A DNA stretch of 64,000 bases, from assembly GCF_003334305.1 (NCBI RefSeq), contig NZ_QOWS01000017.1. One strand, 5' to 3'. Positions within the stretch are counted from its first letter, which is position 1. Each line of letters begins with the position of its first letter. The notes beneath the pieces were generated by a model. It was not told the origin of the DNA, did not search any database, and worked only from the letters and a program-made list of their open reading frames with translations. This DNA is from Escherichia coli. Its GTDB lineage: Bacteria > Pseudomonadota > Gammaproteobacteria > Enterobacterales > Enterobacteriaceae. Positions 28,017 through 47,280 of this stretch are shown here, one piece after another. The translations under genes and the position numbers were made by a program.

Positions 28017-28036
28017 TTACGTATCTTGGCGCGCAG

Positions 28037-28792: not shown

Positions 28793-28806
28793 ACCCCGTC
28801 TCCTGA

Positions 28807-29052
28807 TTAATGGTTGAATGGTGAGCTGTAACAGCCTTTAACTTTTCGGACAACAGCCGGTGCTGTGCTTGCCGGTGCTGGTTTTTCCTCCGTGACCGGA
28901 GAACGAATCACGGCACAAATTGACTCATGCGTTTTAAATGTCGCCGAACAGTAAATATTCTGGCACTGCAGATAACTTTCTTTGACATTGTCACTCACAT
29001 ACCGGCTGGTGCGGGTATGCGCTGAATGACGACAGAAAGGGCAGCGCATCAT
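28807..29052 (-). CDS. Ogr/Delta-family zinc-finger late-gene activator
   Basis: 81-aa ORF with C-x2-C…C-x4-C pattern (MMRCPFCRHSAHTRTSRY…CQNIYCSATF) like P2 Ogr / P4 Delta. Confidence 0.85.
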   Translation of the reverse strand: MMRCPFCRHSAHTRTSRYVSDNVKESYLQCQNIYCSATFKTHESICAVIRSPVTEEKPAPASTAPAVVRKVKGCYSSPFNH

Positions 29053-29783: not shown

Positions 29784-29817
29784 TTTCCGGCTCCTCGTCA
29801 CTTCAGGTTGAGAAAAT

Positions 29818-29873
29818 TGTGACGTACACCGGACAACAACACGACGCATTGCAGATGTGCCAGCCCTGACACA
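29818..29873. promoter_or_regulatory. two TGT-N12-ACA Ogr/Delta-type activator sites in the divergent late-promoter region upstream of sid
   Basis: TGTgacgtacaccggACA (29818-29835) and TGTgccagccctgacACA (29856-29873). Confidence 0.55.
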
Positions 29874-29951
29874 GGAGACTCATCCTCAGACCGGCAAGCC
29901 AGGAAAAGGTCGCAGGAAAAACCGGCTTACTGTTTGTTTTTTTATATTTTA

Positions 29952-30057
29952 CTGTTCACCTCTGTTCACCATAAGAAAAAAGATAAGTAATACAGTAAGT
30001 TAAAGGGTGAACAATCGCAGTAATGACTGTTCACCGTCTGTTCACCACTGTTCACCC
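29952..30057. repeat. P4 ori-like iteron cluster (TGTTCACC repeats, both orientations)
   Basis: At least six copies of tgttcacc or its complement within about 110 bp. Confidence 0.7.
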
Positions 30058-30335
30058 GTTGATGGGCTTTTTGTGCTGTTTATTACTGTTTGTTTTTATT
30101 AATTCGCCGGGAATGAATAAGAAAAAACGATTTGTATTTCACTATAAAAATTACGAATTGCTTTAAGTGGCTTTAAATGACTTTAAGTGGAGATGAACAA
30201 AAAACACACAAGCATTGTAAGGCTGCCGGAACAAATCCCCCCTGTTGCGTCTGCTGAAAATATTCACAAAATAAAACGCTACCCGAAGCCGGACGGACTT
30301 ATCCGGTGCTGTATGGACATTAACGAGGTAGCCCG

Positions 30336-30602
30336 ATGCAAGCTGTTTTTTCTTCCCCGTCTCCTGCCCCTGTGACGCCACTGATGCCGCTGCCGGACAT
30401 CACACAGGAGCGTTTTTTACGTCTGCCGGAAGTGATGCACCTGTGCGGCCTGTCACGCTCGACCATCTATGAACTTATCCGTAAGGGGGAATTTCCGCCG
30501 CAGGTGAGTCTTGGCGGTAAAAATGTGGCCTGGCTGCACTCTGAAGTCACCGCATGGATGGCCGGGCGCATTGCCGGACGCAAACGGGGGTACGACGCAT
30601 GA
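30336..30602 (+). CDS. AlpA/Vis-family small DNA-binding regulator
   Basis: 88-aa ORF; …[34 protein letters not shown]… is the AlpA-type HTH. Confidence 0.65.
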
Positions 30603-30991
30603 TGATGCCCGCTCTGCAAAAAGTCCCTTTTTCTGGCTTGCCTTTTTCCGGCATTTGCGGATATAGTTTTTCCGTTGCCGCAAAATCGGCAGCCGGGCGT
30701 GAGAACCCGTGTAACTCGAAGGCGACATATGACGCGCCATGCGTCTTTTTTTGTGTCGCAATCAACGCCACAGAGCGCCAGATTATGGTGTGGCGTGTGG
30801 TTTGCCGTGCAGGTATGATCCTGTTCGCAATCGCATGTTATGCCACTGAGTCAATGGTAGCTCAGGCGGGGCAGCCTCCGGGCTGGCCGGTATTCTTCGA
30901 GGCCGGTATTCTCACCCCCGTCTGGGCTATCGCCATCGAGCGTGAGAACTCCGGCGATAGCAGTTATTTGCTACTCGAAGGAGGCTGCCTT

Positions 30992-31189
30992 ATGGCTACA
31001 ACCCTTACCCCCTCACACCCTGAATTTGTCTTTGTGTTTGCGGCTGTCCGTCGCGCAGACCGTCATCCCCGTATCTGCATGCTTCGCACCGTCGCCGGTG
31101 ATGAACGCAGCGCCCGCCGTTCCCTTGTCCGTGACTATGTGCTCTCCCTTGCTGCCCGTCTGCCGGTGGTGGAGGTGTCCCGTGCGTAA
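30992..31189 (+). CDS. small hypothetical protein of the satellite early operon
   Basis: 65 codons from an ATG with a strong upstream aaggagg RBS, inside the longer ORF 30554-31189. Confidence 0.35.
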
Positions 31190-31469
31190 TAAAAAAGCCC
31201 CTCAGACCGTCTCAGCACGTCATGACGCCCGTGAACACCTCAGCATTGAGGCTTACCATAAGCTCAACCGCGCCAGCTCCGTATCCCAGTTTGTTGGGGG
31301 TGATTTGATTCACCGTGAACTCTCCGGCCTGCATCAGCTCTACATTCCGCATATTTTCAGCTACCTGAATGAAGATATTGATTTTGTGCTGAATGAGCTG
31401 AAAGCCAAAGGCCTGTGCCGCGATTTTCTCGCCCAGCAGAAAGACCGGGGAGACAGGACGCATGTTTGA
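31182..31469 (+). CDS. small early-operon protein, 95 aa from a GTG start (possible P4 epsilon-like anti-repressor)
   Basis: Tail of ORF 30942-31469; GTG preceded by ggagg; the size matches my recollection of P4 epsilon, but the assignment is not verified. Confidence 0.3.
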
Positions 31470-31917
31470 TTTTCCCCAGCCCGGTGAGATTTACCGTTCT
31501 GCCGGTTTTCCCGATGTGGCCGTGGTCGGCATTCTGGAAGACGGTATTCCGTGGGAAATGCCGTACCGCTGCCCGGACATTGTCTGGAACCCGTACCGCC
31601 GTAAATTCAGTATCCTTGTGCGTATCCTCGCTGACGGACGCACCACAGACATCCCGCTGGGGCGTTTTCTGCGGGAATTTACCTGTGACCGTCCTGACCT
31701 GTTTAAACGCAGCCCCGTAAACCGGCATGCGGTACTGAAAGAAATGGCCGGAGACCCGGAATTACAGAAATGGCGGGAAAAATATCTGGATATTTACCCG
31801 CAGGCCCCTGTTCCGGTCAGCCGGGCGGCACCGGTGGCGCGGGAATGGCGGGAAATTCCCCGCACGGAGCCTGACCCGGAAATCACCCCGGATAACAGTT
31901 ACCGCAATTATCTGTAA
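31462..31917 (+). CDS. P4 orf151-like hypothetical protein
   Basis: 151-aa ORF in the position and of the size of P4 orf151, upstream of alpha. Confidence 0.5.
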   Translation: MFDFPQPGEIYRSAGFPDVAVVGILEDGIPWEMPYRCPDIVWNPYRRKFSILVRILADGRTTDIPLGRFLREFTCDRPDLFKRSPVNRHAVLKEMAGDPELQKWREKYLDIYPQAPVPVSRAAPVAREWREIPRTEPDPEITPDNSYRNYL

Positions 31918-32052
31918 TTAAAAAACGACACCCGAAAAATTAAATGTGCGTATTCGCGCAGGGATACGCACGTCTTCAGGAGACGCAGATATGCCTTATC
32001 AGTTAATGCAACCGGCACGGAATGCAGTCATCTGTCACAGGGAGGAAAGCAA

Positions 32053-32373
32053 ATGAAAACCCCCTTACCGCCCGTCTTACGCGCAGCCCTTTACCGTCGC
32101 GCTGTCGCCTGTGCCTGGCTGACCGTGTGCGAACGTCAGCACCGCTACCCGCATCTCACCCTTGAATCACTGGAGGCGGCCATCGCCGCTGAGCTGGAAG
32201 GCTTTTATCTGCGCCAGCACGGTGAGGAAAAAGGGCGTCAGATAGCCTGTGCCCTGCTGGAAGATTTAATGGAATCCGGCCCCCTGAAGGCCGCGCCGTC
32301 GCTGTCCTTTCTCGGGCTGGTTGTGATGGATGAACTCTGTGCCCGTCACATAAAAGCGCCGGTACTGCACTGA
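32053..32373 (+). CDS. P4 orf106-like hypothetical protein
   Basis: 106-aa ORF immediately upstream of alpha. Confidence 0.5.
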
Positions 32374-32387
32374 AGGAGAACAACACC

Positions 32388-34721
32388 ATGAAAATGAACG
32401 TAACCGCCACCGTCAGCCATGCACTCGGCCACTGGCCGCGTATTCTCCCGGCGCTGGGGATTCAGGTGCTGAAAAACCGTCATCAGCCCTGTCCGGTCTG
32501 TGGCGGGAGTGACCGCTTCCGTTTTGATGACAGGGAGGGGCGCGGCACCTGGTACTGCAATCAGTGTGGTGCCGGTGACGGCCTGAAACTGGTTGAAAAG
32601 GTGTTTGGTGTTTCCCCGTCCGACGCGGCCGCAAAGGTGGCTGCCGTGACCGGCAGCCTGCCACCGGCTGACCCGGCAGTGACGGCCGCCGCCGTTGCTG
32701 AAACAGACGCTGCCCGGAAGAACGCCGCCACACTGGCACAAACCCTGATGGCGAAAACCCGTACCGGAACCGGTAACGCCTACCTGACCCGCAAGGGCTT
32801 TCCCGGCCGGGAATGCCGGATGCTGACCGGCACACACAGAGCCGGTGGCGTGAGCTGGCGCGCCGGTGACCTTGTGGTGCCACTGTATGACGACAGCGGC
32901 GAACTGGTTAACCTTCAGTTAATCAGTGCTGACGGCCGTAAGCGCACCCTGAAAGGCGGACAGGTCAGGGGCACCTGTCACACCCTTGAAGGACAGAATC
33001 AGGCCGGAAAACGTCTGTGGATAGCGGAGGGATACGCGACCGCACTTACCGTACATCACCTGACCGGTGAAACGGTGATGGTGGCGCTTTCTTCCGTGAA
33101 CCTCCTTTCTCTGGCCAGCCTTGCCCGGCAGAAGCATCCGGCCTGTCAGATTGTCCTTGCCGCAGACCGTGACCTCAGCGGTGACGGCCAGAAAAAAGCC
33201 GCCGCAGCCGCAGATGCGTGTGAGGGCGTTGTTGCCCTGCCGCCGGTCTTCGGTGACTGGAATGATGCCTTCACGCAGTACGGCGGGGAGGCCACCCGTA
33301 AGGCCATTTACGATGCCATCCGGCCACCGGCTGAAAGCCCGTTCGACACCATGAGCGAAGCAGAGTTTTCCGCCATGAGTACCAGCGAAAAGGCCATGCG
33401 TATCTATGAGCATTACGGTGAGGCGCTCGCGGTCGATGCCAACGGCCAGCTTCTGTCTCGCTATGAAAATGGTGTCTGGAAGGTGCTGCCGCCACAGGAC
33501 TTTGCCCGGGATGTGGCCGGGCTGTTTCAGCGTCTGCGCGCGCCGTTCTCCTCCGGGAAGGTGGCCTCCGTGGTGGACACCCTGAAGCTGATTATTCCGC
33601 AGCAGGAAGCCCCCTCCCGCCGCCTGATTGGCTTTCGTAACGGTGTGCTCGACACACAGAACGGCACGTTCCACCCGCACAGTCCGTCACACTGGATGCG
33701 CACCCTGTGCGATGTGGATTTCACCCCGCCGGTGGACGGTGAAACGCTGGAGACCCACGCCCCCGCGTTCTGGCGCTGGCTTGACCGTGCCGCCGGTGGC
33801 CGTGCGGAAAAACGCGACGTGATTCTGGCCGCACTGTTTATGGTGCTGGCAAACCGCTATGACTGGCAGCTCTTTCTGGAGGTGACCGGTCCCGGCGGCA
33901 GCGGCAAAAGTATCATGGCCGAAATAGCCACCCTGCTGGCCGGGGAGGATAACGCCACGTCGGCCACCATTGAGACGCTGGAATCCCCGCGTGAACGTGC
34001 CGCGTTAACTGGCTTCTCACTGATACGCCTGCCGGACCAGGAAAAATGGAGCGGCGACGGTGCCGGACTCAAGGCCATCACCGGCGGCGATGCGGTGTCC
34101 GTTGACCCGAAATACCGGGATGCATACTCCACGCATATCCCGGCGGTGATTCTGGCCGTGAACAATAACCCGATGCGCTTCACCGACCGCAGCGGCGGCG
34201 TGTCACGCCGGCGGGTGATTATTCACTTCCCGGAACAGATAGCCCCGCAGGAGCGCGACCCGCAGCTTAAGGACAAAATCACCCGCGAGCTGGCGGTCAT
34301 CGTGCGTCACCTGATGCAGAAGTTCAGCGACCCGATGCTCGCCCGGTCACTGCTTCAGTCCCAGCAGAACTCAGACGAGGCGCTGAACATCAAACGGGAT
34401 GCCGACCCGACGTTTGATTTTATCGGCTATCTGGAAACCCTGCCGCAGACCAGCGGCATGTATATGGGGAACGCCAGTATCATCCCGCGTAATTACCGTA
34501 AATACCTCTATCACGCCTATCTGGCCTACATGGAGGCAAACGGCTACCGGAATGTACTCAGTCTGAAAATGTTCGGGCTGGGGCTGCCGGTGATGCTGAA
34601 GGAATACGGACTGAATTACGAGAAGCGCCATACCAAACAGGGGATACAGACCAACCTGACGCTGAAAGAGGAAAGCTACGGCGACTGGCTGCCAAAATGT
34701 GACGACCCTGCAACAACCTGA
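32388..34721 (+). CDS. P4 alpha primase-helicase (zinc-finger primase, P-loop helicase, C-terminal iteron-binding domain)
   Basis: 777-aa ORF; N-terminal CPVCGG…CNQCG zinc motif; Walker A GPGGSGKS in the central region. Confidence 0.9.
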   Translation: MKMNVTATVSHALGHWPRILPALGIQVLKNRHQPCPVCGGSDRFRFDDREGRGTWYCNQCGAGDGLKLVEKVFGVSPSDAAAKVAAVTGSLPPADPAVTAAAVAETDAARKNAATLAQTLMAKTRTGTGNAYLTRKGFPGRECRMLTGTHRAGGVSWRAGDLVVPLYDDSGELVNLQLISADGRKRTLKGGQVRGTCHTLEGQNQAGKRLWIAEGYATALTVHHLTGETVMVALSSVNLLSLASLARQKHPACQIVLAADRDLSGDGQKKAAAAADACEGVVALPPVFGDWNDAFTQYGGEATRKAIYDAIRPPAESPFDTMSEAEFSAMSTSEKAMRIYEHYGEALAVDANGQLLSRYENGVWKVLPPQDFARDVAGLFQRLRAPFSSGKVASVVDTLKLIIPQQEAPSRRLIGFRNGVLDTQNGTFHPHSPSHWMRTLCDVDFTPPVDGETLETHAPAFWRWLDRAAGGRAEKRDVILAALFMVLANRYDWQLFLEVTGPGGSGKSIMAEIATLLAGEDNATSATIETLESPRERAALTGFSLIRLPDQEKWSGDGAGLKAITGGDAVSVDPKYRDAYSTHIPAVILAVNNNPMRFTDRSGGVSRRRVIIHFPEQIAPQERDPQLKDKITRELAVIVRHLMQKFSDPMLARSLLQSQQNSDEALNIKRDADPTFDFIGYLETLPQTSGMYMGNASIIPRNYRKYLYHAYLAYMEANGYRNVLSLKMFGLGLPVMLKEYGLNYEKRHTKQGIQTNLTLKEESYGDWLPKCDDPATT

Positions 34722-34765
34722 CCCACCTGACCGGCATCTGCCGGTCTTTTTTTATCCCTGAATTC

Positions 34766-35070
34766 CCCGAAGGTGAACAATCCACTGTTCACCCTTCACC
34801 GTATATTCACCCGTTATCACACTGAAATTAAAAGAGAAAAACGAAAGGTGAACAGTGTGAACAATCAAATCAAAAAAAACTTTTTTCTTCCTGAGTGATT
34901 TCAGCACGGGAAATTAATCCCCTGCACAAGTCACACCGGCAGAATGCCGGAGGTGAAGAATCGAATGTTCACCCTTCACCCATTATTCACCACCTATCCA
35001 ACTGAAATAAAAGGAGAAAACAGAAAGGTGAACAGTGTGAACAGTTCTTTCGAAAAAAAATTTTTTTCTT
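34766..35070. repeat. P4 crr-like region: two tandem repeats of about 120-125 bp, each carrying TGTTCACC-type iterons
   Basis: Near-identical units beginning ccgaaggtgaacaatccactgttcaccc… and ccggaggtgaagaatcgaatgttcaccc…. Confidence 0.7.
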
Positions 35071-35185
35071 ATTTTTAATTGTGCGAAAAACAAGCGACAC
35101 ACGCAGTGTGTATAGATATGTGTATAGTTATATTTTTTGAATATTATAATGTATTACAAATCAATGTGTTAGCTTGTAATATTCA

Positions 35186-35205
35186 CTCCTATTATCGGCA
35201 CCATC
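35186..35205. repeat. att core, copy 2 (attR of the P4-like satellite and left boundary of element 2)
   Basis: Exact 20-bp copy of the thrW 3' end. Confidence 0.8.
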
Positions 35206-35808
35206 AAGAAAATCAATAACTTAGCTTAACTTCTCTAAGAAATTGTATCTTCTGTTATCACTTACAAACGCCTATACGTTGTTATGGGCTTTGGTAGTGT
35301 AACACGTATGGGCGAGTAGTTCCCAGGCTCAACCTCGTAACAAGTTCCTTTGAAGCTGGAAGACGTGCCACCGTCTCTAAACCTTCTACCAAAACTCTTA
35401 GCAAGATGTTCCACACCTGGCGCGGTGTCCAATGATGCTACACGTCGTGAGACGTTGCAGAGGATAAACAGGCTAAATGATGGGAAGAGTTTTAAGTGCA
35501 ATAGTGGATTAAAGCCCACCTCTTCAAAACCTAACTTGATCGGGAAAGAATCAAGCTCTAGCACGGTTTCGTCCACCGGAGTACAACGGGTGCCTGATAA
35601 GAGAAGAACTGCTAAGACTTCATAGCTTTTGTGAAAAAGCCCTTTTTAGTGGATACGCCTACGGCGCTTATTTTTTGGTATAACCATCAAAGGCGCTTTA
35701 TGGCTCCTATTGTCTTGAAAATGTATCTTTACTTGTATTGTGTTTTATGCGTAGTCTCCCTGTGTAGTATGTAACTTGTTAATTTTCATATGAATACAGA
35801 GGCACACG

Positions 35809-35967
35809 ATGAAAAACATTGCAGCTATCAAACGGAATAACCGCAAGATTCACGCTCGTAAGTTCCTGTCTACGCCAGAAGGAAAAGCCTGGCTAGAGCG
35901 TAAACAGAGAGAAAACGAAGAAAGAAAACTCCTTAGTGAGTTGAAATGGCTTAGAGAGGATTTCTGA
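35809..35967 (+). CDS. small basic hypothetical protein (52 aa), below the ORF-track size cutoff
   Basis: ATG preceded by an agagg RBS; translation MKNIAAIKRNNRKIHARKFL…. Confidence 0.3.
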   Translation: MKNIAAIKRNNRKIHARKFLSTPEGKAWLERKQRENEERKLLSELKWLREDF

Positions 35968-36310
35968 AAATCTCCAGAACGCAACAGGACGCATTCTAAC
36001 GCTGTTTTCATTACTCGGTATAGGGATTATAGGTGATGTGTGTTTAATGCGTCTGTGAGCTTGTTTTGTGCCTTATTTTGCATTTTCATAATGCAGGAGA
36101 GAACACGGAAAGCCTTAAAATTAATTATTGGGGTATTTAAGGCTATTTTTAGGTTATTTAAGGGTATTAAACTTGATTTAATTGATTGAAATATAAACAG
36201 ATAATTATGTATCTTATTGATTTATAAGGTTATTTTTAAATAAAGGTAAATAAAAAATAAATAGCCATAAATAGCTATAAATACATCTAAATACCTATAT
36301 CCCTTCCCTT

Positions 36311-36694
36311 ATGGCTAGATTGCGAGAAGTGCTTAACGCGATTTTCAGCGCCCCCCGATCTGGAAAATCCAGAATCCCCAAATATCAGCAAGGAATTTTC
36401 TTGCGTAATCAACATCGTTTTTACCTATTAAATCATTACACAGAAAGCCTTTCTGTAATGTCTCTCACTAAACTTTCACTAAACACGAGAATGATCGGTT
36501 TTATGTCGGATCAGATGCTAGAAATAGCACCACGTCTCACAAGGGCTGTAAGCGATGAAACCAGTGTTTATGCGGGTGCAGGTCAAAATATAGGCCAAAA
36601 TACATTTAACATAATAAACGTAATATGCACTAAGGAACACATAGAACGCCTTGAGTTGATGTATCAGGGGAAAAGTGGTGGATTTTTTACGTAG
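36311..36694 (+). CDS. hypothetical protein
   Basis: 127-aa ORF in an AT-rich region; no recognisable motif. Confidence 0.25.
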   Translation: MARLREVLNAIFSAPRSGKSRIPKYQQGIFLRNQHRFYLLNHYTESLSVMSLTKLSLNTRMIGFMSDQMLEIAPRLTRAVSDETSVYAGAGQNIGQNTFNIINVICTKEHIERLELMYQGKSGGFFT

Positions 36695-36720
36695 GAGCAC
36701 GAGAGGGCTTCTATTGACTT

Positions 36721-36999
36721 TTGTATGCTATGAAATATAATAGAAGGTTTTTTTATGTTGATAGTGATTGCACATTAAAGATTGAAAGCAAATTTAAACA
36801 TAAATTTTCAACACGTGAAAGAGAACTTGTTCGACAAATGATAAAACGTTTATTGAGCAACAATTTTGCAGTGATGCGCTATATGCCGAATTACACAAGG
36901 CTTTGCGAAAGTGATGTAAAAGTGAAGAAAGTAAGAATTGCAACTTTAAGCTACTTTTCATTGAATTTTTTAGTATGGAATTACACAGGAATAAGTTAG
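36721..36999 (+). CDS. hypothetical protein
   Basis: 92-aa ORF; no recognisable motif. Confidence 0.25.
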   Translation: MYAMKYNRRFFYVDSDCTLKIESKFKHKFSTRERELVRQMIKRLLSNNFAVMRYMPNYTRLCESDVKVKKVRIATLSYFSLNFLVWNYTGIS

Positions 37000-37085
37000 G
37001 GATATTCTATGATTTACACAGGGAATATAGGGGGATTATGGCACACACATAGAAAGACATTACACAAAGTGCTATGTGACAAATG

Positions 37086-37303
37086 GATGTAACGAGAGGT
37101 TACATTCAGCTATCTGAAATGCTCTCTGTAAGAAAGTTGGTAGTAACGATATGTTACATAGACTAATTATTGAATGTAACGATATTACACATCGGTAGTA
37201 ACGATACGTTACATCGACTAATTATTGAATGTAACGATATTACACATCGGTAGTAACGATACGTTACATCGACAGATGATTGGATGTAACGAAAGGTTAC
37301 ACA
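37086..37303. repeat. iteron/operator array: seven GTAACG-N4-5-GTTAC-type palindromic sites, including two perfect 57-bp tandem units
   Basis: Units ggtagtaacgata(c/t)gttacat…gaatgtaacgatattacacatc repeated head-to-tail; an AT-rich stretch follows at about 37310-37390. Confidence 0.7.
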
Positions 37304-38398
37304 ATAAGACTATATTATTTATAATACTAAATAAAACTATATTAGATTATTAATTAGATCATAATAATATTCTTTATATCTATATATATGATCTTTTGCC
37401 TTCCGGCGTTAGCTTCACTCCCTGGCAAGCAGCCTTACTCCGCTACCTTTCGGGCTACGTTGGCTGGCCCGTTCCGCTCACACCGAAAGCAAAGCGTTAC
37501 TTTCTTCGTGTAACTATCGTGGCGGTAACGCCCACGAAGAAATACTATTGCGCTGTGCGCAGAAGAGTAATCACCTAACCAATCATAGATTGCTTATGTG
37601 TTAACTCTCTCTACCTCTTAATTCCACTTCCTACATTTAATAACTCTGTTATTCTCTGTAGTTGTGTAATTACTCGAAGAGAGAGCGGCTAAAGCTCAAT
37701 TACACTCTGCTTTCCTCGTGTAAGTTCACTAAGCCTCAATACAATTTCACTTCCTACATTCTGTAGTCGTGTAATTGTTTTCGGTGGAAAAGCCAGAGGC
37801 GACACCGAAAGAGAATTCTGATCTTATTAATCTTATCTATCTTAGTTAATCTTCTTACTTTATCTACTTTATTATTAATAATAGCTTTATAAGCTCTGTG
37901 TAGCTCTCTGACGCAAGAAACAGCATTCAGGAAGGGAATCACCTTAGAAAAGGTGTTCTTTGCGTCATAATGTGTTTTATGAAGGATTCAGAGGTGTTTC
38001 ATAACAGGAATGTATAGAGGATATTTTAATTAATTAAAAATAAGGGGTCTAAATGCTTCTCTAACAACATTAAGCAGGGTAGGGAATGGAAACGCATTGC
38101 CTACATATAATAAGCTCACTACAGGGCTTTACAGAGCGTTTTATAAAGTGACTCTCTGTTTTATATTTACCATTACCTTTTCATATACCTAACAAATACA
38201 AAATAAGCCCCTTCAATAAGCCTCTGGCGAGCGAAACAGCCATTAGATAAGGGAATGTATTGCTTTTATCAAAATCTCGTCAGAATGCGATTGAGAGTGT
38301 TTTAGCGGATAATGAAGAATAGCACTACATAGAAGAGCACGAATTGTTAAGCAAAATCATAACATACTGAAAAAGATCAGTTTTTTTGTGAAAAGGTA

Positions 38399-38427
38399 TT
38401 GACAAACGTCTCTTTCTGTGCAATAAT
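38399..38427 (+). promoter_or_regulatory. sigma70-like promoter (TTGACA, 17-bp spacer, TGcAATAAT extended -10)
   Basis: Read directly from sequence; about 130 nt upstream of the 38555 ORF. Confidence 0.5.
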
Positions 38428-38554
38428 AGGTATTAGAGGGGACAGGAATAGATTCTTATCCTCTAAATAATTAAACCAATGCACCGCACTTTGAAGCCCA
38501 AGAGGCTTGCAAGGTGTTTTTTCTTTTAACCAAATCGAATAAGGAGGCTAATTA

Positions 38555-38731
38555 ATGAAATATTTCACTCCACAGGATGTAGTAGAAGCCTGGAAACGTG
38601 GTGAGATCAACCGCTTTAAAGTAAGGATGTATAGAAACACCGCTCGCCGTTGTGGTTATCCAGAGCGTGAAAAATGTTTTGACGATGCACTGAAAATTAT
38701 TGATGAACTGCGTAAAGCTGAGAAAGAATAA
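38555..38731 (+). CDS. small hypothetical protein (58 aa)
   Basis: ATG with a strong aaggagg RBS; first gene after the promoter. Confidence 0.45.
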   Translation: MKYFTPQDVVEAWKRGEINRFKVRMYRNTARRCGYPEREKCFDDALKIIDELRKAEKE

Positions 38732-38753
38732 TAGACAAGAGAAGGAGAAAACT

Positions 38754-38921
38754 ATGAGCGAAACTAAGAAACCAATTCCGCGCACTTACCTTCACGTTGA
38801 CCCTGAAATCTTCAAGGTTTTATTTGCTGAAGCCAAGAAAAGGCAAATTATGGTCAGTGATTTGATGTTAGAAATCATTACTGAAGCAGCAGAGAACATC
38901 AAACAAAAAAAGGGTAAGTGA
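38754..38921 (+). CDS. ribbon-helix-helix (CopG/Arc-like) DNA-binding protein
   Basis: 55 aa; …RTYLHVDPEIFKVLFAEAKKRQIMVSDLMLEII… fits a beta-strand then two helices (RHH). Confidence 0.5.
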   Translation: MSETKKPIPRTYLHVDPEIFKVLFAEAKKRQIMVSDLMLEIITEAAENIKQKKGK

Positions 38922-38974
38922 TCCTCATTCACTTTAGTAGCGCATTAAGCGTGATTTATAAGGAGATGATTCTA

Positions 38975-39718
38975 ATGTCTAAAATTAAATTGATTCGTGA
39001 AAAATACCAGTATGTTGATAAACAAACAGGAGAAATTAAAGACCGAACTTTGAATATACCGCATTACTTTTGTGAGATTGAATTTATCTACTCCTCAAGT
39101 GTTGATGGTGGAAAAGTTAAGTTTAGTGCAGAAATGCAAAAATTATATTGCTATGTTTCAGATTGGGAGAAATCAGGGGGGATATGTTTTGAAACACAAA
39201 CGAAGTTAAGTAAAGTTTGTGGCTGTAGCCGTAAGACAGTTAATGAACTGATTGGTCTTATGATTAAAATCGGTCTTTTAGAAGAGGTCGGAGAACGAAT
39301 TCCAAAACGTCCTTTAAAATTACGTGCGCTACCTCTCACAGATGCACATATTACTCCCCCAGGAGAATCATCACTCTCTGATCTTTCTGAGGCAGAAGAA
39401 GCACAGGAACAACCTAAAGGCCATAAACAGCCTTCTTTTGATGTTCTTGATGATTGGGATGCGCCTTTACCGTGGGAGACGGAAGAAACACCTGTTTCAT
39501 CAAGTGAAAAGGTAGCTAATGATAATGAGGAGGATGTATTAGAGAATTTTGCCTCTCTTATCATCCAGGAGAAACACACAAGAACAGGAGGAGCATCATT
39601 TATTGAGTTTGCAAATTCACTAGCTTATAGATACGGGCTAAAACGACCAAATGGTATTGAGGCATATTTTTCTAAGAATTACCCAAATGTATATGATGAA
39701 TTTGATATTCCCTTTTAA
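38975..39718 (+). CDS. helix-turn-helix protein with acidic C-terminal half (candidate replication initiator or regulator)
   Basis: ORF 38918-39718; start placed at the ATG after an aaggag RBS; winged-helix-like segment …TQTKLSKVCGCSRKTVNELIGLMIKIGLLEE…. Confidence 0.5.
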   Translation: MSKIKLIREKYQYVDKQTGEIKDRTLNIPHYFCEIEFIYSSSVDGGKVKFSAEMQKLYCYVSDWEKSGGICFETQTKLSKVCGCSRKTVNELIGLMIKIGLLEEVGERIPKRPLKLRALPLTDAHITPPGESSLSDLSEAEEAQEQPKGHKQPSFDVLDDWDAPLPWETEETPVSSSEKVANDNEEDVLENFASLIIQEKHTRTGGASFIEFANSLAYRYGLKRPNGIEAYFSKNYPNVYDEFDIPF

Positions 39719-40141
39719 TAAGGAGGACTATGATTCAATATTTAGTAAAAAAATCAAGTAGACAGAATTCAGTGTAATGACACAGGAAAACGCATCTACG
39801 AAACACTTGCTTACCTCTATAAAGGAAAGCCAACACCGCTAAAATATAGCGATGTGTTACATCGAGCAGGGTGCTCTGAAGCTGGTTTAAAATTCTGGCT
39901 GAAACAGCTATCAAATTTCGGTGTTATTGAAATGAAAGAGCTGTCTTTTTCTACATTCAATCTCAAAAGATTAGATAAAGAAATAGAATTCATCTATTCC
40001 ACTCTCTAAAATCTCTCTATGTAATTAAAATATAAAAGGAAAACATTATTATGATAGTAGCTATGTATTGGTTATTGTTCTTTCTCACGTTAGAAGCATA
40101 CTTTGGGGTGTTTTCCTTTAAAAGAAAAGGAAAAGTAAATA

Positions 40142-40558
40142 ATGGCAAAAAGAAAAAACAACGTTGTTAAGAAAATCGGTGATTCAGCTTCTCTTCTAAG
40201 TAAACCTAAACCTAAATCTATTCTAAGACGTAAAGACTTTAAAGAGCTAGTTACGCTCACCAAGCAAAATAGCGCCCCTGGCGAATGGAAAACAGAGATC
40301 ATAGAACATTCTCCCTCTGTGCCTTGTGGAGATGAATTTAACGCCTTGCAAGAAATCTTATCTTCAACACCTGGCGTATTCTGGAAACCTAGAAAAAGAA
40401 AAGAGTATATCGTTGATAGCTCTGATTTACGCAAATACCAGATTTTAGGATTTGAAGATTATAACCACTACGTCGGTTATCTCGCCACCAATGGCCTAAA
40501 TAATTTAGTTCCTGAATTCCAAATTTTAGATAATGCTGATCACTATGGAGACTTTTAA
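40142..40558 (+). CDS. hypothetical protein with basic N-terminus
   Basis: 138-aa ORF. Confidence 0.45.
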   Translation: MAKRKNNVVKKIGDSASLLSKPKPKSILRRKDFKELVTLTKQNSAPGEWKTEIIEHSPSVPCGDEFNALQEILSSTPGVFWKPRKRKEYIVDSSDLRKYQILGFEDYNHYVGYLATNGLNNLVPEFQILDNADHYGDF

Positions 40559-40559
40559 T

Positions 40560-40898
40560 ATGAACAAAAACACGTATGACACAATTTATTCACTAATTAA
40601 TTATTATGAGGATGATTACCTCCTGCCTTTAAACCGCGCTGAACTTGAAGCATACAAAGAAAACACGCCAGGGGCGCTAAATGAGGCGTTTAAACACTGG
40701 GATTTAGCTGTGAATGCCTTTGAGCACCTTTCTAAAAGAGTAGAGATGCTCTGTAAGCGTGAAAACGCATACCTGACAGCCGATCAGATATGGGAGCTAT
40801 CAAACTGGATAGAAGATATTGAATCTGATGTTCGCTATGTAGGGGATGGCCTGGTTGAATTAGCTCAACGCTTAGGCGCTACTATCACAGAAGAATAA
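40560..40898 (+). CDS. hypothetical protein
   Basis: 112 aa from an ATG overlapping the upstream stop (taATG). Confidence 0.45.
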   Translation: MNKNTYDTIYSLINYYEDDYLLPLNRAELEAYKENTPGALNEAFKHWDLAVNAFEHLSKRVEMLCKRENAYLTADQIWELSNWIEDIESDVRYVGDGLVELAQRLGATITEE

Positions 40899-40927
40899 AA
40901 AAAGCAACAAAAAAGTTGTAAAATATC

Positions 40928-40959
40928 TTGACATTCCATCTATTGTATGTTAATATAAT
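40928..40959 (+). promoter_or_regulatory. strong sigma70-like promoter (TTGACA, 17-bp spacer, TAATAT)
   Basis: Read directly from sequence; followed by about 290 nt of structured leader before the 41248 ORF. Confidence 0.5.
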
Positions 40960-41247
40960 TATATAGGGGTGATTATTTTTCCTTTATTGGTTCGATATTA
41001 AAAATTCTTCCTGTCATTAAAGGGGAGTAAAATCTCCGCTCCCCGCTTCTCCTCCTTAAGTAAATACTGTGTCATTATACCTCTTTTTTCCTTTGTTATG
41101 CATACATCTTGGAGTATGCATAACATAGGGTAATTACATAGGTATGAGTTAATAAAAGGCGGCTCTAAATGCTGCCTTTTATTTTGCCCGTTATGCAACT
41201 TAAAAGTTGTATTTCTTACTTTAAAAAAGGTAACAAGGTTTATATAA

Positions 41248-41460
41248 ATGTTGTTTTTAAACGATAAAGAGCAAATCATCAAGTATAAAGATGAAATGCT
41301 GAAAATTAATCCACAAATTACCGAAATGGTAGCTAAATACGCTGGGTGTTCTGTCGAGGAAGTAGAAAGATGTGTTGAAAAATATTTTTCTCCTTCTACT
41401 CCGTCTACACCTTCCCTTAATGAATTAATCAAATTAAAAGCTAAGGAGATTACTAAATGA
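41248..41460 (+). CDS. hypothetical small protein
   Basis: 70-aa ORF; stop overlaps the next start. Confidence 0.4.
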   Translation: MLFLNDKEQIIKYKDEMLKINPQITEMVAKYAGCSVEEVERCVEKYFSPSTPSTPSLNELIKLKAKEITK

Positions 41461-41819
41461 TTATTGATTTAGACACTCTGTTTCCAGTTAGAAAGACTTT
41501 CACAGATATTGTAAGTTATTGTACTGATCCGTTTGCCTCTGTAGAAAGCAAGGTTTTTGCTTCTCTTCCTGCTGATGTTGAGTGCGGCGACTTGATCACC
41601 AGTACTGGCGCTAAATATGAATCAGGAGATGATATCTATGTTGTTATGAGTGAATTTGTAACGGCTGGAGAAAACAAGCCTGTAGATGTGCTACGTAGTA
41701 ATGCTGGTCTTGTCTGCATCAAAGCTGATGCGCTGAATGCTGTAAGTGAAGCAGCAAAAACAGCATTAATTAAAAAAGGCTTCCAGCTTGAAGGGTTCCA
41801 TTCTGTTTTCACTTCTTAA
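41457..41819 (+). CDS. hypothetical protein upstream of the capsid-like gene (possible decoration or scaffold-like)
   Basis: 120-aa ORF, translationally coupled; functional guess from position only. Confidence 0.45.
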   Translation: MIIDLDTLFPVRKTFTDIVSYCTDPFASVESKVFASLPADVECGDLITSTGAKYESGDDIYVVMSEFVTAGENKPVDVLRSNAGLVCIKADALNAVSEAAKTALIKKGFQLEGFHSVFTS

Positions 41820-41837
41820 TAAAAGGAATAATAATAA

Positions 41838-42869
41838 ATGATTCTAGGTAATGATTACGTTGATTTAGCTCCGCTTTTCCAGGCACACAGCACTAGAAAC
41901 TTTCTGCTCTCTACCCTCGACTTCACTGATCCGGTGGGCGTTAGTTCTCATAAAGTAGCTGTTTCTCAGCTTGTCGAAAGCAACGAATCTCTGTTCAACA
42001 AAGAAACCTCTCGTTTCTCTTCTGAACACAATGTTACTAAGCGTGAACAAGGTAAAGAATGGCTGATTGAAATCCCGTATTTTCTTCGTGAAGATGTGAT
42101 CCGTCCTTCTGATGTTCAAGGCAAGCGTAAGCCTGGCACTGATTTTCAGGAAACACTCACTGATATCTATGCGGAATATATCGCTAAACACCACGTAGCG
42201 TATCAGCGTACAAAAGAGAGCGTGTTGGCTGCATCTCTGTTTAGCGGTAAAACTTACACGCCTAAAACTGATGATGTTCTTATCGAGTGGGGCAAGCTGT
42301 TTAACGTGGCACCTATGAAAGCCACCTTGAACGCTTCCAGCACTGACACAATGACCGTTTTCAAGCAATTTGACCAGCTTGCTACGGATATGATTGCTAA
42401 GGCACAAAACCAGGCTGCAACCATTGAGCGTGTTGTTGTGTTCTGTAAACCTGCGGCATTCAACGCTATTCGTTACAGTGTTGGTATGGTCAATGCTTTC
42501 CAATATGCAAGCCCTGTAGACGATGCCAACGTGGTGTTTAATGTGCGTTCCCTGCTACCAGGTGTAACTACTTTCACCATTCCAGGAACTAACATTGACC
42601 TGATCAAAGTGACTGATCCGCTACACCTTGCACATATGGCTTCTGATGCGGTTGCTGTGCCTAAATTCGCTAAGGGGGCAGGTGTTTACCAATCTATCTA
42701 TGGGGCAGCTTCCAGCACCTTTGAACTGATCAATGCCGCTCCTGCTGAGGTGTATAGCTATAGCTATGAATCTTCTTCTCGTGGTGATGCTGTTAACGTT
42801 GTTACAGAGAATAGCCAGATGGTGGTAAACCACGGCGTTGGTTTCTCCGTTCAAATCACTGTTAAATAA
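41838..42869 (+). CDS. phage major capsid protein candidate (lambda gpE-like family)
   Basis: 343-aa ORF (lambda E is about 341 aa); several segments, including the C-terminal …GFSVQITVK, resemble my recollection of lambda E; not verified by search. Confidence 0.5.
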   Translation: MILGNDYVDLAPLFQAHSTRNFLLSTLDFTDPVGVSSHKVAVSQLVESNESLFNKETSRFSSEHNVTKREQGKEWLIEIPYFLREDVIRPSDVQGKRKPGTDFQETLTDIYAEYIAKHHVAYQRTKESVLAASLFSGKTYTPKTDDVLIEWGKLFNVAPMKATLNASSTDTMTVFKQFDQLATDMIAKAQNQAATIERVVVFCKPAAFNAIRYSVGMVNAFQYASPVDDANVVFNVRSLLPGVTTFTIPGTNIDLIKVTDPLHLAHMASDAVAVPKFAKGAGVYQSIYGAASSTFELINAAPAEVYSYSYESSSRGDAVNVVTENSQMVVNHGVGFSVQITVK

Positions 42870-42955
42870 TATTTTAACGTGTAATAGAGGCGTGGCGTGA
42901 ATAACACGCTTCGCCTTTTTTTATTTATTTTTAAATTTTGAGAGGTGATTAAAAT

Positions 42956-43159
42956 ATGGAAGTGATTCTGAAATCAAAAAATGGTGTACACGTTTATTTA
43001 GATGCTAATGATTCAAGAGGCTTGTTAAATCTGAAATATCTATGTTCTCTCTTGGATGTTCCATATGAAGGCGTAAAAGCCCGAATGTTCAGATTAAACG
43101 AGAGTATTGATCAAGCTCTACACCATTTCTTAAGCAAAGAAGGTGGTAAAAATGATTAA
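42956..43159 (+). CDS. hypothetical small protein
   Basis: 67-aa ORF. Confidence 0.35.
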   Translation: MEVILKSKNGVHVYLDANDSRGLLNLKYLCSLLDVPYEGVKARMFRLNESIDQALHHFLSKEGGKND

Positions 43160-43173
43160 TAAGGGGATTTTAA

Positions 43174-45012
43174 ATGTTAGAAATTAACACTTCTAAAATT
43201 AAGAACACAGTAACATTTAGTGTAGATAAAGACAGCTTGAAAAAAGCGAAAGACTCTATTACAGGCTTAAAGGAATTCACAGAAAACATCAAGCCAGCTA
43301 AATTAAGGTTTGATAGTGTCACTAAAGGCTATAAGAAAGCACAAAGCGAAGTAGACAAGATTGCTCAACAGAAAGCTAAAACAGAAAAGCAGAATCAAAG
43401 AGCACAAGCTGCCGCAGCAAGAGCACAGGCAAGGCAACAGACACAAATAGCAGCACGTAAAGAGAAAGCAGAATTAAAGCTCCTCGATGTGTCAAGCTCT
43501 ATCAGTGCAATGCACCGCCTCTCTGTAGCGGAACAATACAAAGCTATTGCACAGGCTAGAGAGATAGCAAAACAATATGAGCAAGGGGCTATCTCGCTTG
43601 CACGTATGAATAGTCAGATGAAACGCCTACAACAGCAACAACGTAAGATTAATGGCAACAGAAAAGCTCAATTAGCCCCCGTTAAGGGAGGAGGATCAGG
43701 GAATTCCGCCACGATGGGTGCTCTGTTATTTGGAGGCGCTACAGCGGCTGCTGGCGTGATGGCTGTTAGTAAAGCGTCGGAGTTTGTTAGTAACAGTTTC
43801 GCTAACGCAGAGACACAAGGTGAGCTAATTCAACGTGCAAGGCTTGGCGGTGTAGACGTTAACCAGATGTACAACATTACAGAATGGGCCTATAGAAACG
43901 GCGTTGACTCTATGATGGGTGATCAAGGGGCTAGGAAATACCTGGATCAGATGAAAGATGTTAGGGAACGTGCCGCAAAATCCTATAGTGAAGCTGAATA
44001 TGTAGTCGATAAAAAAACTGGTAAAGGCGGCGAATGGAAAGGCGGTGATAACGCTATTAATGAACTTCTAAACATCGGTGTTATTAACAAGAGCGACCTT
44101 AAAAAATTTGCTGATAATCCAGCCGGATTAATTTCTAAGGCTGTTAATGGAATGATGAAAAAAGGGTTTTCAGACTCCCAAATTGGACAACGTTTAGAAG
44201 ACCTGGGTGATGATTTGATGCTTACATCAAAATATTGGCAACGTTCCGTTAAAGATGTACAAACAAGCATCGAGCAGCAAAAAGCCTCTGGAAAATGGCT
44301 AACAGAAACACAGCAAGATTCTATTGTTAAATTCAGAGAACTAAACAGACAGCTTTCACAGCTTTCTGATGCAAGACAAGTAGCATTTGTAGACGGCTTT
44401 ATGAAATCTCTCGATCCAAAAGTAACGGAAGAGTTTATGAAAAACCTTTCTAATCTCACTCCGTATTTTACAAAGCTGGGAGAAGCTACAGGAAGTCTCT
44501 TTGAAGCTATTATGAAGATTGTAAACTGGTTTAATCGTAATGATGATAAGACAGATGCTATTCAGAAAAATTTAGGTGATGCACCGCCATTAAGCAATGA
44601 AGGAATGAAACAGAATCTTTCTAATCTCGTTCCTGATCAATATAAAGGCGCTGGCACCGGAACAACTAAGCCAGATAACAGCAATTCCCTGTTTAACACT
44701 ATTAAGGGATTGCTTTTCGATGATAAGTCTTCTTCTGTGTCAGATGTAAAAATGTCAGTCAGCGAAGCACCGATAACCAATCTCAAACAGGGCGCTTTAA
44801 ATAATCTTGCAATGACAACTCCGGCTTATAATTTATCTCCTGTGTTTAATCTGAATCCTACATTTGAAGTGGTAACAGAGGTTCCTCTTACTATTAATTC
44901 TGACACATCAAGATTAAGCGATTATGTGGATTTTACAGCGAGATCAAGTCGGGATAGCTTCTTGAAATCATTAACATTAACCAGCTTATCAGGACAATCT
45001 AACGGCGGGTAA
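43174..45012 (+). CDS. large coiled-coil protein with a Gly/Ala-rich hydrophobic segment (tape-measure-, pilot- or ejection-like)
   Basis: 612 aa; K/Q/A-rich predicted coiled coil in the N-terminal 170 aa; GGGSGNSATMGALLFGGATAAAGVMAV segment. Confidence 0.55.
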   Translation: MLEINTSKIKNTVTFSVDKDSLKKAKDSITGLKEFTENIKPAKLRFDSVTKGYKKAQSEVDKIAQQKAKTEKQNQRAQAAAARAQARQQTQIAARKEKAELKLLDVSSSISAMHRLSVAEQYKAIAQAREIAKQYEQGAISLARMNSQMKRLQQQQRKINGNRKAQLAPVKGGGSGNSATMGALLFGGATAAAGVMAVSKASEFVSNSFANAETQGELIQRARLGGVDVNQMYNITEWAYRNGVDSMMGDQGARKYLDQMKDVRERAAKSYSEAEYVVDKKTGKGGEWKGGDNAINELLNIGVINKSDLKKFADNPAGLISKAVNGMMKKGFSDSQIGQRLEDLGDDLMLTSKYWQRSVKDVQTSIEQQKASGKWLTETQQDSIVKFRELNRQLSQLSDARQVAFVDGFMKSLDPKVTEEFMKNLSNLTPYFTKLGEATGSLFEAIMKIVNWFNRNDDKTDAIQKNLGDAPPLSNEGMKQNLSNLVPDQYKGAGTGTTKPDNSNSLFNTIKGLLFDDKSSSVSDVKMSVSEAPITNLKQGALNNLAMTTPAYNLSPVFNLNPTFEVVTEVPLTINSDTSRLSDYVDFTARSSRDSFLKSLTLTSLSGQSNGG

Positions 45013-45046
45013 TTCCCGCCATAACATTACAAGGAAAATTATTATT

Positions 45047-45760
45047 ATGGCGACCGCCGGGATTTTAACCATACGTGCAGCAAATACTCCAGAACAACAC
45101 GTTCAGGCTGTTTACAAAGCAGAACAAGATATAAATTCTACAAAAAACGAAAATAGCAAAGCTAATAAAACAAAAGGAGAGAACGGATTTGCTATTGTTA
45201 CCAGTGGCTTGGCATCTTCTGGCAATGACGTTTATGAAAATTATATGGCCCTGGCCTTTGACAGTGTAGACGATGTGAACGTGAGACGTTCGGCAGATGT
45301 CACAAGCTACCCCGTAGAAAATGGTGCTACTGTGTCTGATCACGTTCAAATTAAAAACAATAAGTTTTCTCTTAAAGGAAGGATCACTGAAACACCGATT
45401 AAAAGCGATCCTGGCTTGTTAAAGAGTGCAGGGGTGAACGGGAACAGAAGATCATTAGCCATAGACTACTTGAATCAGATTATGGACAGTAGACAGCCTT
45501 TTCTTCTTGTTACAGAAAATAAAACTTTTGAGAACGTTGTTTTAACAGGCATCGAATACACAGAAGAGGCAAGCGAATCCCTGGTATTTGATCTTAGCTT
45601 TGAGCAGATCAGATTAGTTTCTTATGGCACTGTATCCACTATTGCACTTAAAACACAACCATCTAAGAACATCGGGGCGAATATGAAAAAACGTGTTAAC
45701 ACTGAAAAATCAAGTAGTGAAGGTGAAGACACTATTACTCCTGCCTTTAAGCAGAAATAG
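45047..45760 (+). CDS. hypothetical protein (possible virion structural protein)
   Basis: 237-aa ORF. Confidence 0.5.
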   Translation: MATAGILTIRAANTPEQHVQAVYKAEQDINSTKNENSKANKTKGENGFAIVTSGLASSGNDVYENYMALAFDSVDDVNVRRSADVTSYPVENGATVSDHVQIKNNKFSLKGRITETPIKSDPGLLKSAGVNGNRRSLAIDYLNQIMDSRQPFLLVTENKTFENVVLTGIEYTEEASESLVFDLSFEQIRLVSYGTVSTIALKTQPSKNIGANMKKRVNTEKSSSEGEDTITPAFKQK

Positions 45761-45801
45761 CCGTAAACGCCTCTAAAACGCTCTGTAACGATGTAATTAT
45801 A

Positions 45802-45838
45802 AAAGAGGCTGCCAATCTATGTTGAAGCCTCTTTATTG
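45802..45838. terminator. bidirectional intrinsic terminator between the structural-like genes and the convergent integrase
   Basis: Stem aaagaggct / agcctcttt with flanking A/T runs. Confidence 0.55.
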
Positions 45839-45841
45839 TGT

Positions 45842-47206
45842 TTATGGCGTTGTTTTACGCCTTAAATTTGATTTTTTATTGATTGATAAGCCTTTCTCTA
45901 TTTCAGGGTAGCGTAGAAGCTCAATATAGTTTTTAAGCTCTACTGGAGAAGCTGCATTCTTGCTATATGTGCGGAATGTCTCTGTATTGCCGCGTGTATG
46001 GCCCAGGAGAAGGGCGATCCTGTCTTCTGGAATTTGATTTCGATCAAGAAGCTGTGCTACTCCGTGTCTCAGAGAATGAAACACTTTCCTTTCTGTTCCC
46101 TTTTCCCCTAAAGCCTTTCGTTTAGCTCTTGTAAATCTCTGCGTGTGCCACGTGGAACGTTTACCATCAGCACGCTCTGTAATGCTGGCGTGATAGAACA
46201 AAAAGCCATTATGAGGCTTTTCACGCAGCGACAACACCAACGGAGTGATAAGGCTATGTACAGGCACAACACGTGCCGCAGCTTTCGTTTTTCCCTGTGT
46301 GATTTCAAAACACAGCACACCTTCGATCTCTTTCACATCGTCTATTGTGAGACTTGCTATCTCATTGATCCGCATACCTGTATATAAACCGATAAGACAC
46401 AAAGCCATCATTTCTTTGTTTTCTGCTGAATTACCGGAAAATACTTGCAACACCTGCAATAGCTCTTTGTTAGAAAATGCCTCGTAGCTCTCTCTACTTT
46501 GTGCCACATCAAGCCTATGCCCTCGCCAGGGGGAGAGCGCCCTTTCTGGCGCATCGTGGTAACGTGATGAAGCTAACTCCCATAGCTGGGCTATTGGGCT
46601 GATATAATTTGCAATTGATTGTTGTGAAAGAGTTTTTTGCATGTGTTCTATCCAGCCTGTAACAGTGGTGCGGCTCACATCTTGCAATGCAATATCAGGC
46701 TTTTTACGGTAGGAGAGAAACATCTCTACCGCTTTTCTTGCCTTAGCTAAAGTGGCTGGCTTCTTCTTCGTGCTGTTAATTGTCAGGTAGATTTCAAGAA
46801 TTTTAAGCAATGACGGACACGAAGACGCTGTATCTTGCATTCTGGTAGCTGTTTTGGCGTATTTAGCCTTACTGCGTAACAGCTCCAGCGTGTTCTCTAT
46901 TGTGCTGTTTACAGGGGCGACACTCTCCCGTAGGCAATGGTATTCATCTGCAATCTGATCACGCTTTCTACGTGCAACACGAAGATTATTTGTGTGTAGA
47001 CTTCTGACAAACGTCCTTTTTCCTTCAAAAAAGGGCTGCATATACACAGGCAGCGTGATCCTTAAATAGTAGTTACCGTAAGAATCACAGATTAAGTATT
47101 GGTTAGGCTTGTATCTCATAAAATCTCCGGCTAAAGTGTCGGAGCGTTTGTAATGTGAAAATTGATTGTAACGCATAGAAAATGATAATTTTTCTATAAG
47201 ATTCAA
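45842..47206 (-). CDS. tyrosine integrase (intF-position integrase)
   Basis: 454-aa ORF; catalytic signature …GMRINE…HSLRHG…GHTRGNTETFRTYSK; sits beside the degenerate att copy. Confidence 0.85.
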   Translation of the reverse strand: MNLIEKLSFSMRYNQFSHYKRSDTLAGDFMRYKPNQYLICDSYGNYYLRITLPVYMQPFFEGKRTFVRSLHTNNLRVARRKRDQIADEYHCLRESVAPVNSTIENTLELLRSKAKYAKTATRMQDTASSCPSLLKILEIYLTINSTKKKPATLAKARKAVEMFLSYRKKPDIALQDVSRTTVTGWIEHMQKTLSQQSIANYISPIAQLWELASSRYHDAPERALSPWRGHRLDVAQSRESYEAFSNKELLQVLQVFSGNSAENKEMMALCLIGLYTGMRINEIASLTIDDVKEIEGVLCFEITQGKTKAAARVVPVHSLITPLVLSLREKPHNGFLFYHASITERADGKRSTWHTQRFTRAKRKALGEKGTERKVFHSLRHGVAQLLDRNQIPEDRIALLLGHTRGNTETFRTYSKNAASPVELKNYIELLRYPEIEKGLSINKKSNLRRKTTP

Positions 47207-47260
47207 TCAATTAGTAATGGTCGTAGGTGATGGCATTAACACGAGATTAATCGAGTGTTT

Positions 47261-47280
47261 TACTCCTATTATCGCACCAT
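47261..47280. repeat. att core, copy 3 (degenerate, 19/20): actcctattatcgcaccatt
   Basis: One-base deletion relative to copies 1 and 2. Confidence 0.6.

Follow-up and report, generated by a model that had tools for sequence, protein, structure and literature searches.

The DNA analyzed here (the window; 64,000 nt) is from the chromosome of Escherichia coli strain A7, found in orangutan faeces in the USA, and is a 100% match to positions 985174-1049173 of NZ_CP028767.1. It contains a low-GC island delimited by copies of the thrW 3' end (ACTCCTATTATCG(G)CACCAT), which occur at positions 23340, 35185, and 47262 (Table 1). The island encodes an integrase, a Rep-like protein, a Phage_cap_E-like capsid protein, a 612-aa tape-measure-like protein, and a Dit/baseplate-like protein. 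The capsid-like protein is 23 to 25% identical to any phage capsid protein, and no terminase, portal, or protease gene was found in the 12 kb of the island. Parts of the island are present in approximately 9% of complete E. coli genomes, and there are syntenic islands whose proteins are only 40 to 52% identical. The islands of the relatives share the gene order Rep-like/HTH_36, a 92-aa gene, 127 to 135 aa, 112 aa, Phage_cap_E capsid-like, 63 aa, approximately 620 aa, and integrase, with a Dit_like gene before the integrase in one of three syntenic loci.

A P4-like satellite (23361-35205) is inserted in tandem at thrW, between thrW and the island. Between alpha and cI it is 97.5% identical to P4; it contains the C4 and isrK RNAs and carries a complete Gabija system between int and psu (GajA, 24694-26397; GajB, 26394-28016). 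An Rfam search of the island found no known RNA, the only matches being the thrW tRNA and the adjacent P4 C4/isrK RNAs. Approximately 2.6 kb of the island (35968-38554), extending from a 52-aa ORF to the first gene of the Rep operon, is devoid of annotated genes in every genome examined; this stretch holds a repeat array and several AT-rich short repeats.

The Rep operon lies on the positive strand behind a strong promoter-like site (TTGACA-17-AATAAT, 38399-38427) and has no internal predicted terminator; specifically, none was predicted on this strand between the Rep-like gene and the 92-aa gene. It comprises, in order, two small ORFs, the Rep-like gene, the 92-aa gene, a 39-aa membrane-type ORF, and genes for 138 and 112 aa. 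Ahead of the capsid-like, tape-measure-like, and Dit-like genes is another promoter-like site (40928-40956). The 39-codon ORF (40051-40170) is unannotated, encodes a hydrophobic peptide (MIVAMYWLLFFLTLEAYFGVFSFKRKGK…), and overlaps, in the +1 frame, the start of the annotated 138-aa gene (40142-40558). In strain STK78-E, five A's instead of six fuse these two ORFs into a single one of 166 aa. We considered a second frameshift at this position in the window (an extra A at about 40153-40158) and rejected it, since four other loci have the two-ORF form and STK78-E is the exception.

The window copy of the 92-aa gene is disrupted. Its ATG at 39730 sits 11 nt past the stop of the Rep-like gene, behind a Shine-Dalgarno sequence that is kept at all homologous loci, ATG- or TTG-started alike. 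The ORF that begins there is only 15 codons long (MIQYLVKKSSRQNSV; stop at 39775-39777). The frame that encodes the winged-helix-like peptide KRIYETLAYLYKGKPTPLKYSDVLHRAGCSEAGLKFWLKQLSNFGVIEMKEL on the positive strand is +1 relative to this ATG and overlaps the 15-codon ORF inside the run of seven A's. PGAP placed no annotation over the disrupted gene in strain A7.

An earlier note had picked out the winged-helix frame, which is real and encoded, but had given it 76 residues ending at about 39990 rather than 86 codons and a stop at 40007-40009. It also held that the frame lacks a usable start, and we agree: there is no ATG in the frame, and the first canonical start, GTG 39854, leaves 51 codons. 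A nearby 21-codon ATG ORF does exist, but it starts at 39777 and not at 39767. This ATG was mistaken for the only one in the vicinity; the true start at 39730 was missed, and the cited one is irrelevant to the gene. The coordinates in that note were off by 10 to 19 bases. The 21-codon ORF had no annotated counterpart in any homologous locus and is not part of the gene.

Table 1. Coordinates of the features discussed (positions in the window unless another record is named).
Feature	Position	Strand	Remarks
Low-GC (33-47%) island carrying the gene	35206..47279		12.07 kb; bounded by thrW 3'-end copies
Island integrase	45842-47119	-	
Rep-like region compared with phage genes	window 38743-39368; L016 2733-3836 (inny_184); L017 2232-3230 (muut_154)		
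Rep-like gene, winged-helix DNA-binding N-domain	38975..39718	+	Annotated "transcriptional regulator"; PHROG replication-initiator families; HTH_36 in relatives
Shine-Dalgarno AAGGAGG	39720..39726	+	3 nt 5' of start ATG, 1 nt 3' of the stop of the Rep-like gene
Whole disrupted gene	39730..40009	+	280 nt here, 279 nt intact; allele of the 92-aa hypothetical-protein family
Disrupted gene, 5' fragment	39730..39777	+	True ATG, native codons 1-7 (MIQYLVK), then out of frame to TAA
A7 homopolymer	39747..39753	+	Site of the +1 A insertion (from alignments and run lengths)
Disrupted gene, 3' fragment, open frame	39749..40009	+	86 codons (39749-40006) plus TAA 40007-40009; residues 7-92
21-codon ATG ORF	39777..39842	+	Third frame; overlaps the TAA of the 15-codon ORF

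Intact alleles of the 92-codon gene

At the same locus, strain STK78-E has a run of six A's and an annotated 92-aa CDS (WP_000617151.1; MIQYLVKNQVDRIQCNDTGKRIYETLAYLYKGKPTPLKYSDVLHRAGCSEDGLKFWLRQLSNFGVIEIKELSFSTFNLKRLDKEIDFIYSTL). Aligned with this allele, the window has one extra A and the gene is otherwise free of indels, so that mending this one indel recreates an uninterrupted ORF with the start and stop of the intact orthologue. With one A removed, the window encodes a 92-aa protein that nine other contigs carry, unchanged, as an intact ORF; all three pattern-matched copies (of four retrieved) among the contigs with this ORF contain six A's. The repaired protein is 92 to 96% identical in amino acid sequence to full-length alleles of the family. 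The RefSeq 92-aa family of E. coli thrW islands (e.g., WP_000617151.1 and WP_000617146.1) occupies the same locus as the window copy, with the same start and stop, but has six A's where the window has seven and is split. The suspicion voiced in the earlier note that the gene was inactivated by a frameshift is thus supported, and the comparison with homologous elements that it proposed did find intact single-ORF homologues, with six A's, for the downstream frame.

We searched 5,426 complete E. coli genomes with a 131-nt stretch around the A-run, and approximately 290 of them held it. Only strains A7 and VTB96935v matched the stretch at 99% or more, and PGAP was blank over the gene in both. Each of the 58 next-best matches aligned 130 query bases with 129 record bases and had a "hypothetical protein" annotated there; the same was true of 51 out of 59 evenly sampled matches. 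Six A's were confirmed in the example loci that were fetched. A second allele group begins at the same position with TTG…ATA AAA AGC AAA in place of ATG…GTA AAA AAT CAA, and the start position is constant while the neighboring codons vary. In CFIAFB20190167, the run consists of five A's.

Other copies of the gene have suffered larger lesions, including a 23-nt deletion in STLIN_13 and a 39-nt in-frame deletion in GF153. Several in-frame deletions, as well as fusions to a downstream ORF, were also found among database proteins of the family. The deletions recur between short direct repeats (ACAGGAAA…AAAGGAAAG; ATGACAC…ACAC), as seen in L011 and L012, at the loci homologous to window 39779-39850, and among the database proteins P0002-P0024. 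Some copies are joined at LSN(F/W) to the C terminus of the ORF at 40533-40898. Such rearrangements suggest that microhomology-mediated deletion is frequent in this island, which is AT-rich.

The length of the open frame is by itself little proof of a gene: an 86-codon open stretch has a chance of approximately 0.002 per position at the local base composition, and several spurious frames of that length are present in the island. Pairwise comparisons among intact alleles and the repaired window allele yielded pN/pS of 0.11 to 0.31, at pS of up to 0.21, values that indicate purifying selection on the gene. The only more distant relatives of full length that an exhaustive phmmer search of 1.84 billion representatives returned are two proteins with identities of 52% and 40%. 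Each of them (P0028 and P0029; 92 and 94 aa) is encoded by a single ORF, begins with MIQY, and holds the same position in a syntenic island; the N terminus MIQY[LI] is kept down to 40% identity. Given the low pN/pS and the conserved position in such distant relatives, we conclude that the gene is real.

Predicted fold of the 92-residue protein

The AlphaFold2 model of the protein had a mean pLDDT of 70.7, from a shallow alignment, and reached about 83 in the core; the first 12 and the last 5 residues were disordered. The DSSP elements were helices at residues 18-30, 39-46, and 50-62 and strands at 36-38, 66-70, and 75-81, and this helix-strand-helix-helix-strand-strand order is that of a winged helix-turn-helix. 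Among the top 50 Foldseek matches in the PDB, almost all were winged-helix domains (CodY, ScpA, Z-alpha, PefI/PapI, Sso10a, MarR, and ArsR, the first four being at the top), with modest scores: E no better than 5e-3, TM of 0.5 to 0.6, and an rmsd of 2.4 to 3 Å over approximately 66 residues. The element order and the structural matches both agree with the winged-helix assignment made in the earlier note, and the protein is predicted with moderate confidence to adopt this fold.

In its predicted topology, the protein resembles the winged helices of PapI/PefI, the CodY C-terminal domain, and MarR/ArsR, but its sequence identity to them is only 10 to 24%, with no profile match. No Pfam match had an E value below 0.24, PHROG, NCBIfam, and PADLOC contained no matching family, and tblastn against 50,697 phage records found no homologue of the protein; a DNA search of the phages matched only the neighboring Rep-like segment, in phages inny and muut. 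Since no sequence family matched, we infer DNA binding and a regulatory role from the model: the protein presumably binds DNA and is a putative regulator. The fold is a common one. The sequence family is uncharacterized and has a narrow range, namely E. coli and its close relatives.

The C-terminal tail of the protein (…KEIEFIYSTL, 39980-40006) has EIEFIYS in common with residues 20-41 of the Rep-like protein (…CEIEFIYSS…, 39032-39097), and E-x-IYS is retained in the tails of the relatives at 40 to 52% identity. EIEFIYS may serve as an interaction motif in both proteins or may be common to them by chance. BLASTP between the small protein and the Rep-like winged helix returned only this short motif (E = 0.005), which does not count as evidence of paralogy.

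Origin and consequences of the extra adenine

In strain VTB96935v, from a chicken in South Africa, this island lies immediately next to thrW, with an IS3 insertion and without the P4-like satellite, which of this pair only strain A7 possesses. Over 10 kb, the two islands share 99.85% identity and are separated by 12 substitutions and by two indels, one in a TA-repeat and one of a single T, both of which are intergenic. The chromosomal flanks are 98.5 to 99.4% identical, that is, 0.6 to 1.5% diverged. The run consists of seven A's in both assemblies. Because two independent assemblies of diverged strains agree on this length, the extra A was most likely inherited, as judged from these alignments, and is not a random sequencing error.

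Long-read assemblies typically err in homopolymer length, and a systematic error of this kind in both assemblies would mean that the true run has six A's and that the gene is intact in strain A7. Runs of five, six, and seven A's all occur among assemblies, and PGAP raised no pseudogene flag at the disrupted gene, as might be expected of an artefact. The seven A's, however, are common to two independent assemblies whose islands differ by 12 SNPs and whose backbones are 0.6 to 1.5% apart. Moreover, over 10 kb these assemblies show no homopolymer difference in coding sequence, and no "frameshifted" pseudogene was flagged within the 44 kb surrounding the site. We therefore regard a sequencing or assembly artefact as unlikely.

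The three tract lengths found in nature (five in CFIAFB20190167, six in most genomes, and seven in two) would also be expected if slipped-strand mispairing toggled the gene, and codons 6 to 8 are a classic position for such an on/off switch. Known contingency tracts, however, usually have 8 or more repeats, so that this one is short. Alleles of an off length make up only about 1% of genomes, and a large allele group retains the gene with AAAAAGCAAA in place of the tract. In addition, the two seven-A islands have gathered 12 SNPs without reversion, and the irreversible deletions of the same gene elsewhere are consistent with simple decay. Phase variation at this locus is thus very unlikely.

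Programmed recoding, whether the ribosome shifts to the +1 frame on the run or RNA polymerase slips there, would yield the full-length protein from the split gene; a programmed-frameshift arrangement had been considered in the earlier note. Re-pairing of tRNA-Lys from AAA 39748-50 to AAA 39749-51 would indeed give the wild-type sequence MIQYLVKNQ…, and the slippery heptamer that the note proposed to look for is formally present (A_AAA_AAA). Its natural direction, however, is -1, and a -1 slip meets a stop (TAG 39759-39761) after three codons, whereas the productive shift is +1. The shift site has neither a stop nor a rare codon, and the sole Shine-Dalgarno sequence is more than 20 nt upstream, as opposed to the 3-nt spacing at the prfB frameshift site. 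Like dnaX (A_AAA_AAG, -1) and prfB (CUU_UGA_C, +1), the locus has an A-rich slippery run at the junction of overlapping frames; unlike them, it has no stimulators, it would need a +1 shift on a heptamer that favors -1 into a stop, and its split arrangement is not conserved. The split form was found in only 2 of the approximately 290 genomes, the relatives at 40 to 52% identity are single ORFs, and one allele group has no long A-run altogether. Transcriptional slippage is selected against or used at A/T runs of approximately 9, sometimes 8 (PMC1088944), and the run of 7 is below this length. Taken together, these observations do not support a programmed frameshift, which we consider highly improbable.

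Least credible is a shortened functional protein made from ATT 39767 or GTG 39854: the frame has no stop from 39749 onward, and a 51-codon ORF begins at GTG 39854, but neither codon is preceded by a Shine-Dalgarno-like sequence, a start at the GTG would drop helix 1 and strand 1 of the modeled winged helix, the TAA of the 15-codon ORF overlaps ATG 39777, from which translation would proceed in the wrong frame, and the exact 51-aa product is absent as a gene from the assembly collection. The same 51-aa product, used as a proxy for further seven-A alleles, was not on record in public assemblies.

The locus is most likely a real 92-codon gene in a frameshifted allelic form that has probably lost its function. 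The ancestral gene would have started at ATG 39730 behind AAGGAGG and encoded a small stand-alone winged-helix protein. In the lineage of this island, one A would have been inserted into the six-A run that spans codons 6 to 8, changing GTA AAA AAT to GTA AAA AAA T. Because of this insertion, ribosomes starting at 39730 would make only a 15-residue peptide and halt at 39775-39777. The remaining 85 codons would be stranded in the +1 frame with no start or ribosome-binding site; the lack of a start in the winged-helix frame is thus explained by the frameshift, and the winged-helix protein would not be made, save for traces from slippage at the level of errors. We infer that the seven-A allele abolishes the function of the gene, with a low level of frame restoration on the run being possible. 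Polar effects of the frameshift should be small, since each of the genes further down has a ribosome-binding site of its own.

Homopolymer frameshifts of this kind are ordinary, and RefSeq already lists the intact protein as hypothetical. In the A-run frameshift pseudogenes described previously (Baranov et al. 2005, PMC1088944), a single-A indel likewise breaks a reading frame that sister strains retain whole. Those cases that are rescued by slippage have runs of 9, sometimes 8 (PMC1088944), as opposed to 7 here, so that efficient rescue is not expected.

Phage relatives of the island and significance of the allele

Over residues 1-129, the Rep-like protein matches the N terminus of inny_184, a protein of the virulent phage inny (Justusliebigvirus), with 96% amino acid and 97.6% nucleotide identity, and this was the sole such match in 50,697 phage records. 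Its orthologue in the virulent Justusliebigvirus muut, muut_154, has a different N-terminal domain. Over 299 nt, this domain shows 100% identity with the Rep-like gene from a further allelic type of the island; this muut-type allele is present in 64 E. coli genomes. The remainders of inny_184 and muut_154 are 92% identical overall, and the second winged helix and the nuclease domain are identical. In the constant part, a second HTH_36 domain is followed by a C-terminal endonuclease domain (phrog_681, E = 2-4e-18; weak Pfam matches to MUG113, 5e-4, and T5orf172, 0.13).

Approximately 1.7 kb upstream of the Rep N-domain, the window contains 55-bp tandem repeats (2.8 copies, 37139-37303) with inverted GTAACG…CGTTAC motifs. 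The muut-type island (L022) has unrelated TGATACCCCTATCAA repeats at its positions 2765-2857. Only two segments of the island in strain A7, the repeat block (37084-37303) and the Rep-like N-domain (38836-39422), lack similarity to L022, and the flanks of these segments are 86 to 97% identical. The Rep N-domain therefore covaries with the repeat array between the island types, and the two are candidates for an origin-plus-initiator specificity module.

The nuclease Odn of phage ICP1 and the RepA/ori module of the PLE satellite have been described as an arms-race pattern (PMC8263062). There, as with inny_184 and muut_154 and the thrW islands, a phage nuclease shares the N-domain of an island Rep. 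This likeness suggests, by analogy and from sequence comparison of two replicon types only, that the island family may be a satellite of Justusliebigvirus phages. Our literature search found no description of a thrW capsid-encoding satellite or of any Stephanstirmvirinae satellite.

The 92-aa protein is 93 to 96% identical across islands with unrelated Rep N-domains and repeat arrays, which makes a conserved site a more probable target than the variable iterons. The protein may be a small DNA-binding factor working within the early or replication operon of an island that is mobile and satellite-like. A bolder proposal is that it is a conserved core regulator of undescribed E. coli satellites, for which A-tract indels at codons 6 to 8 serve as natural on/off lesions. 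Such a family would comprise the 12-kb thrW islands with their integrase, Rep-like initiator and cognate iterons, lambda-E-like capsid, tape-measure-like, and Dit-like proteins, and its helpers would be virulent Justusliebigvirus phages, e.g., inny and muut. We hold this proposal to be speculative and rather doubtful.

A one-base frameshift matters little in itself, and the side observations on the island are of greater interest. For annotation, the true start is ATG 39730, and the locus, which is blank in PGAP, should be marked as a frameshifted pseudogene. Strains A7 and VTB96935v would be natural knock-outs of a conserved island gene. If the island is a phage satellite, near-identical islands with six and seven A's could be compared for the role of the winged-helix protein.
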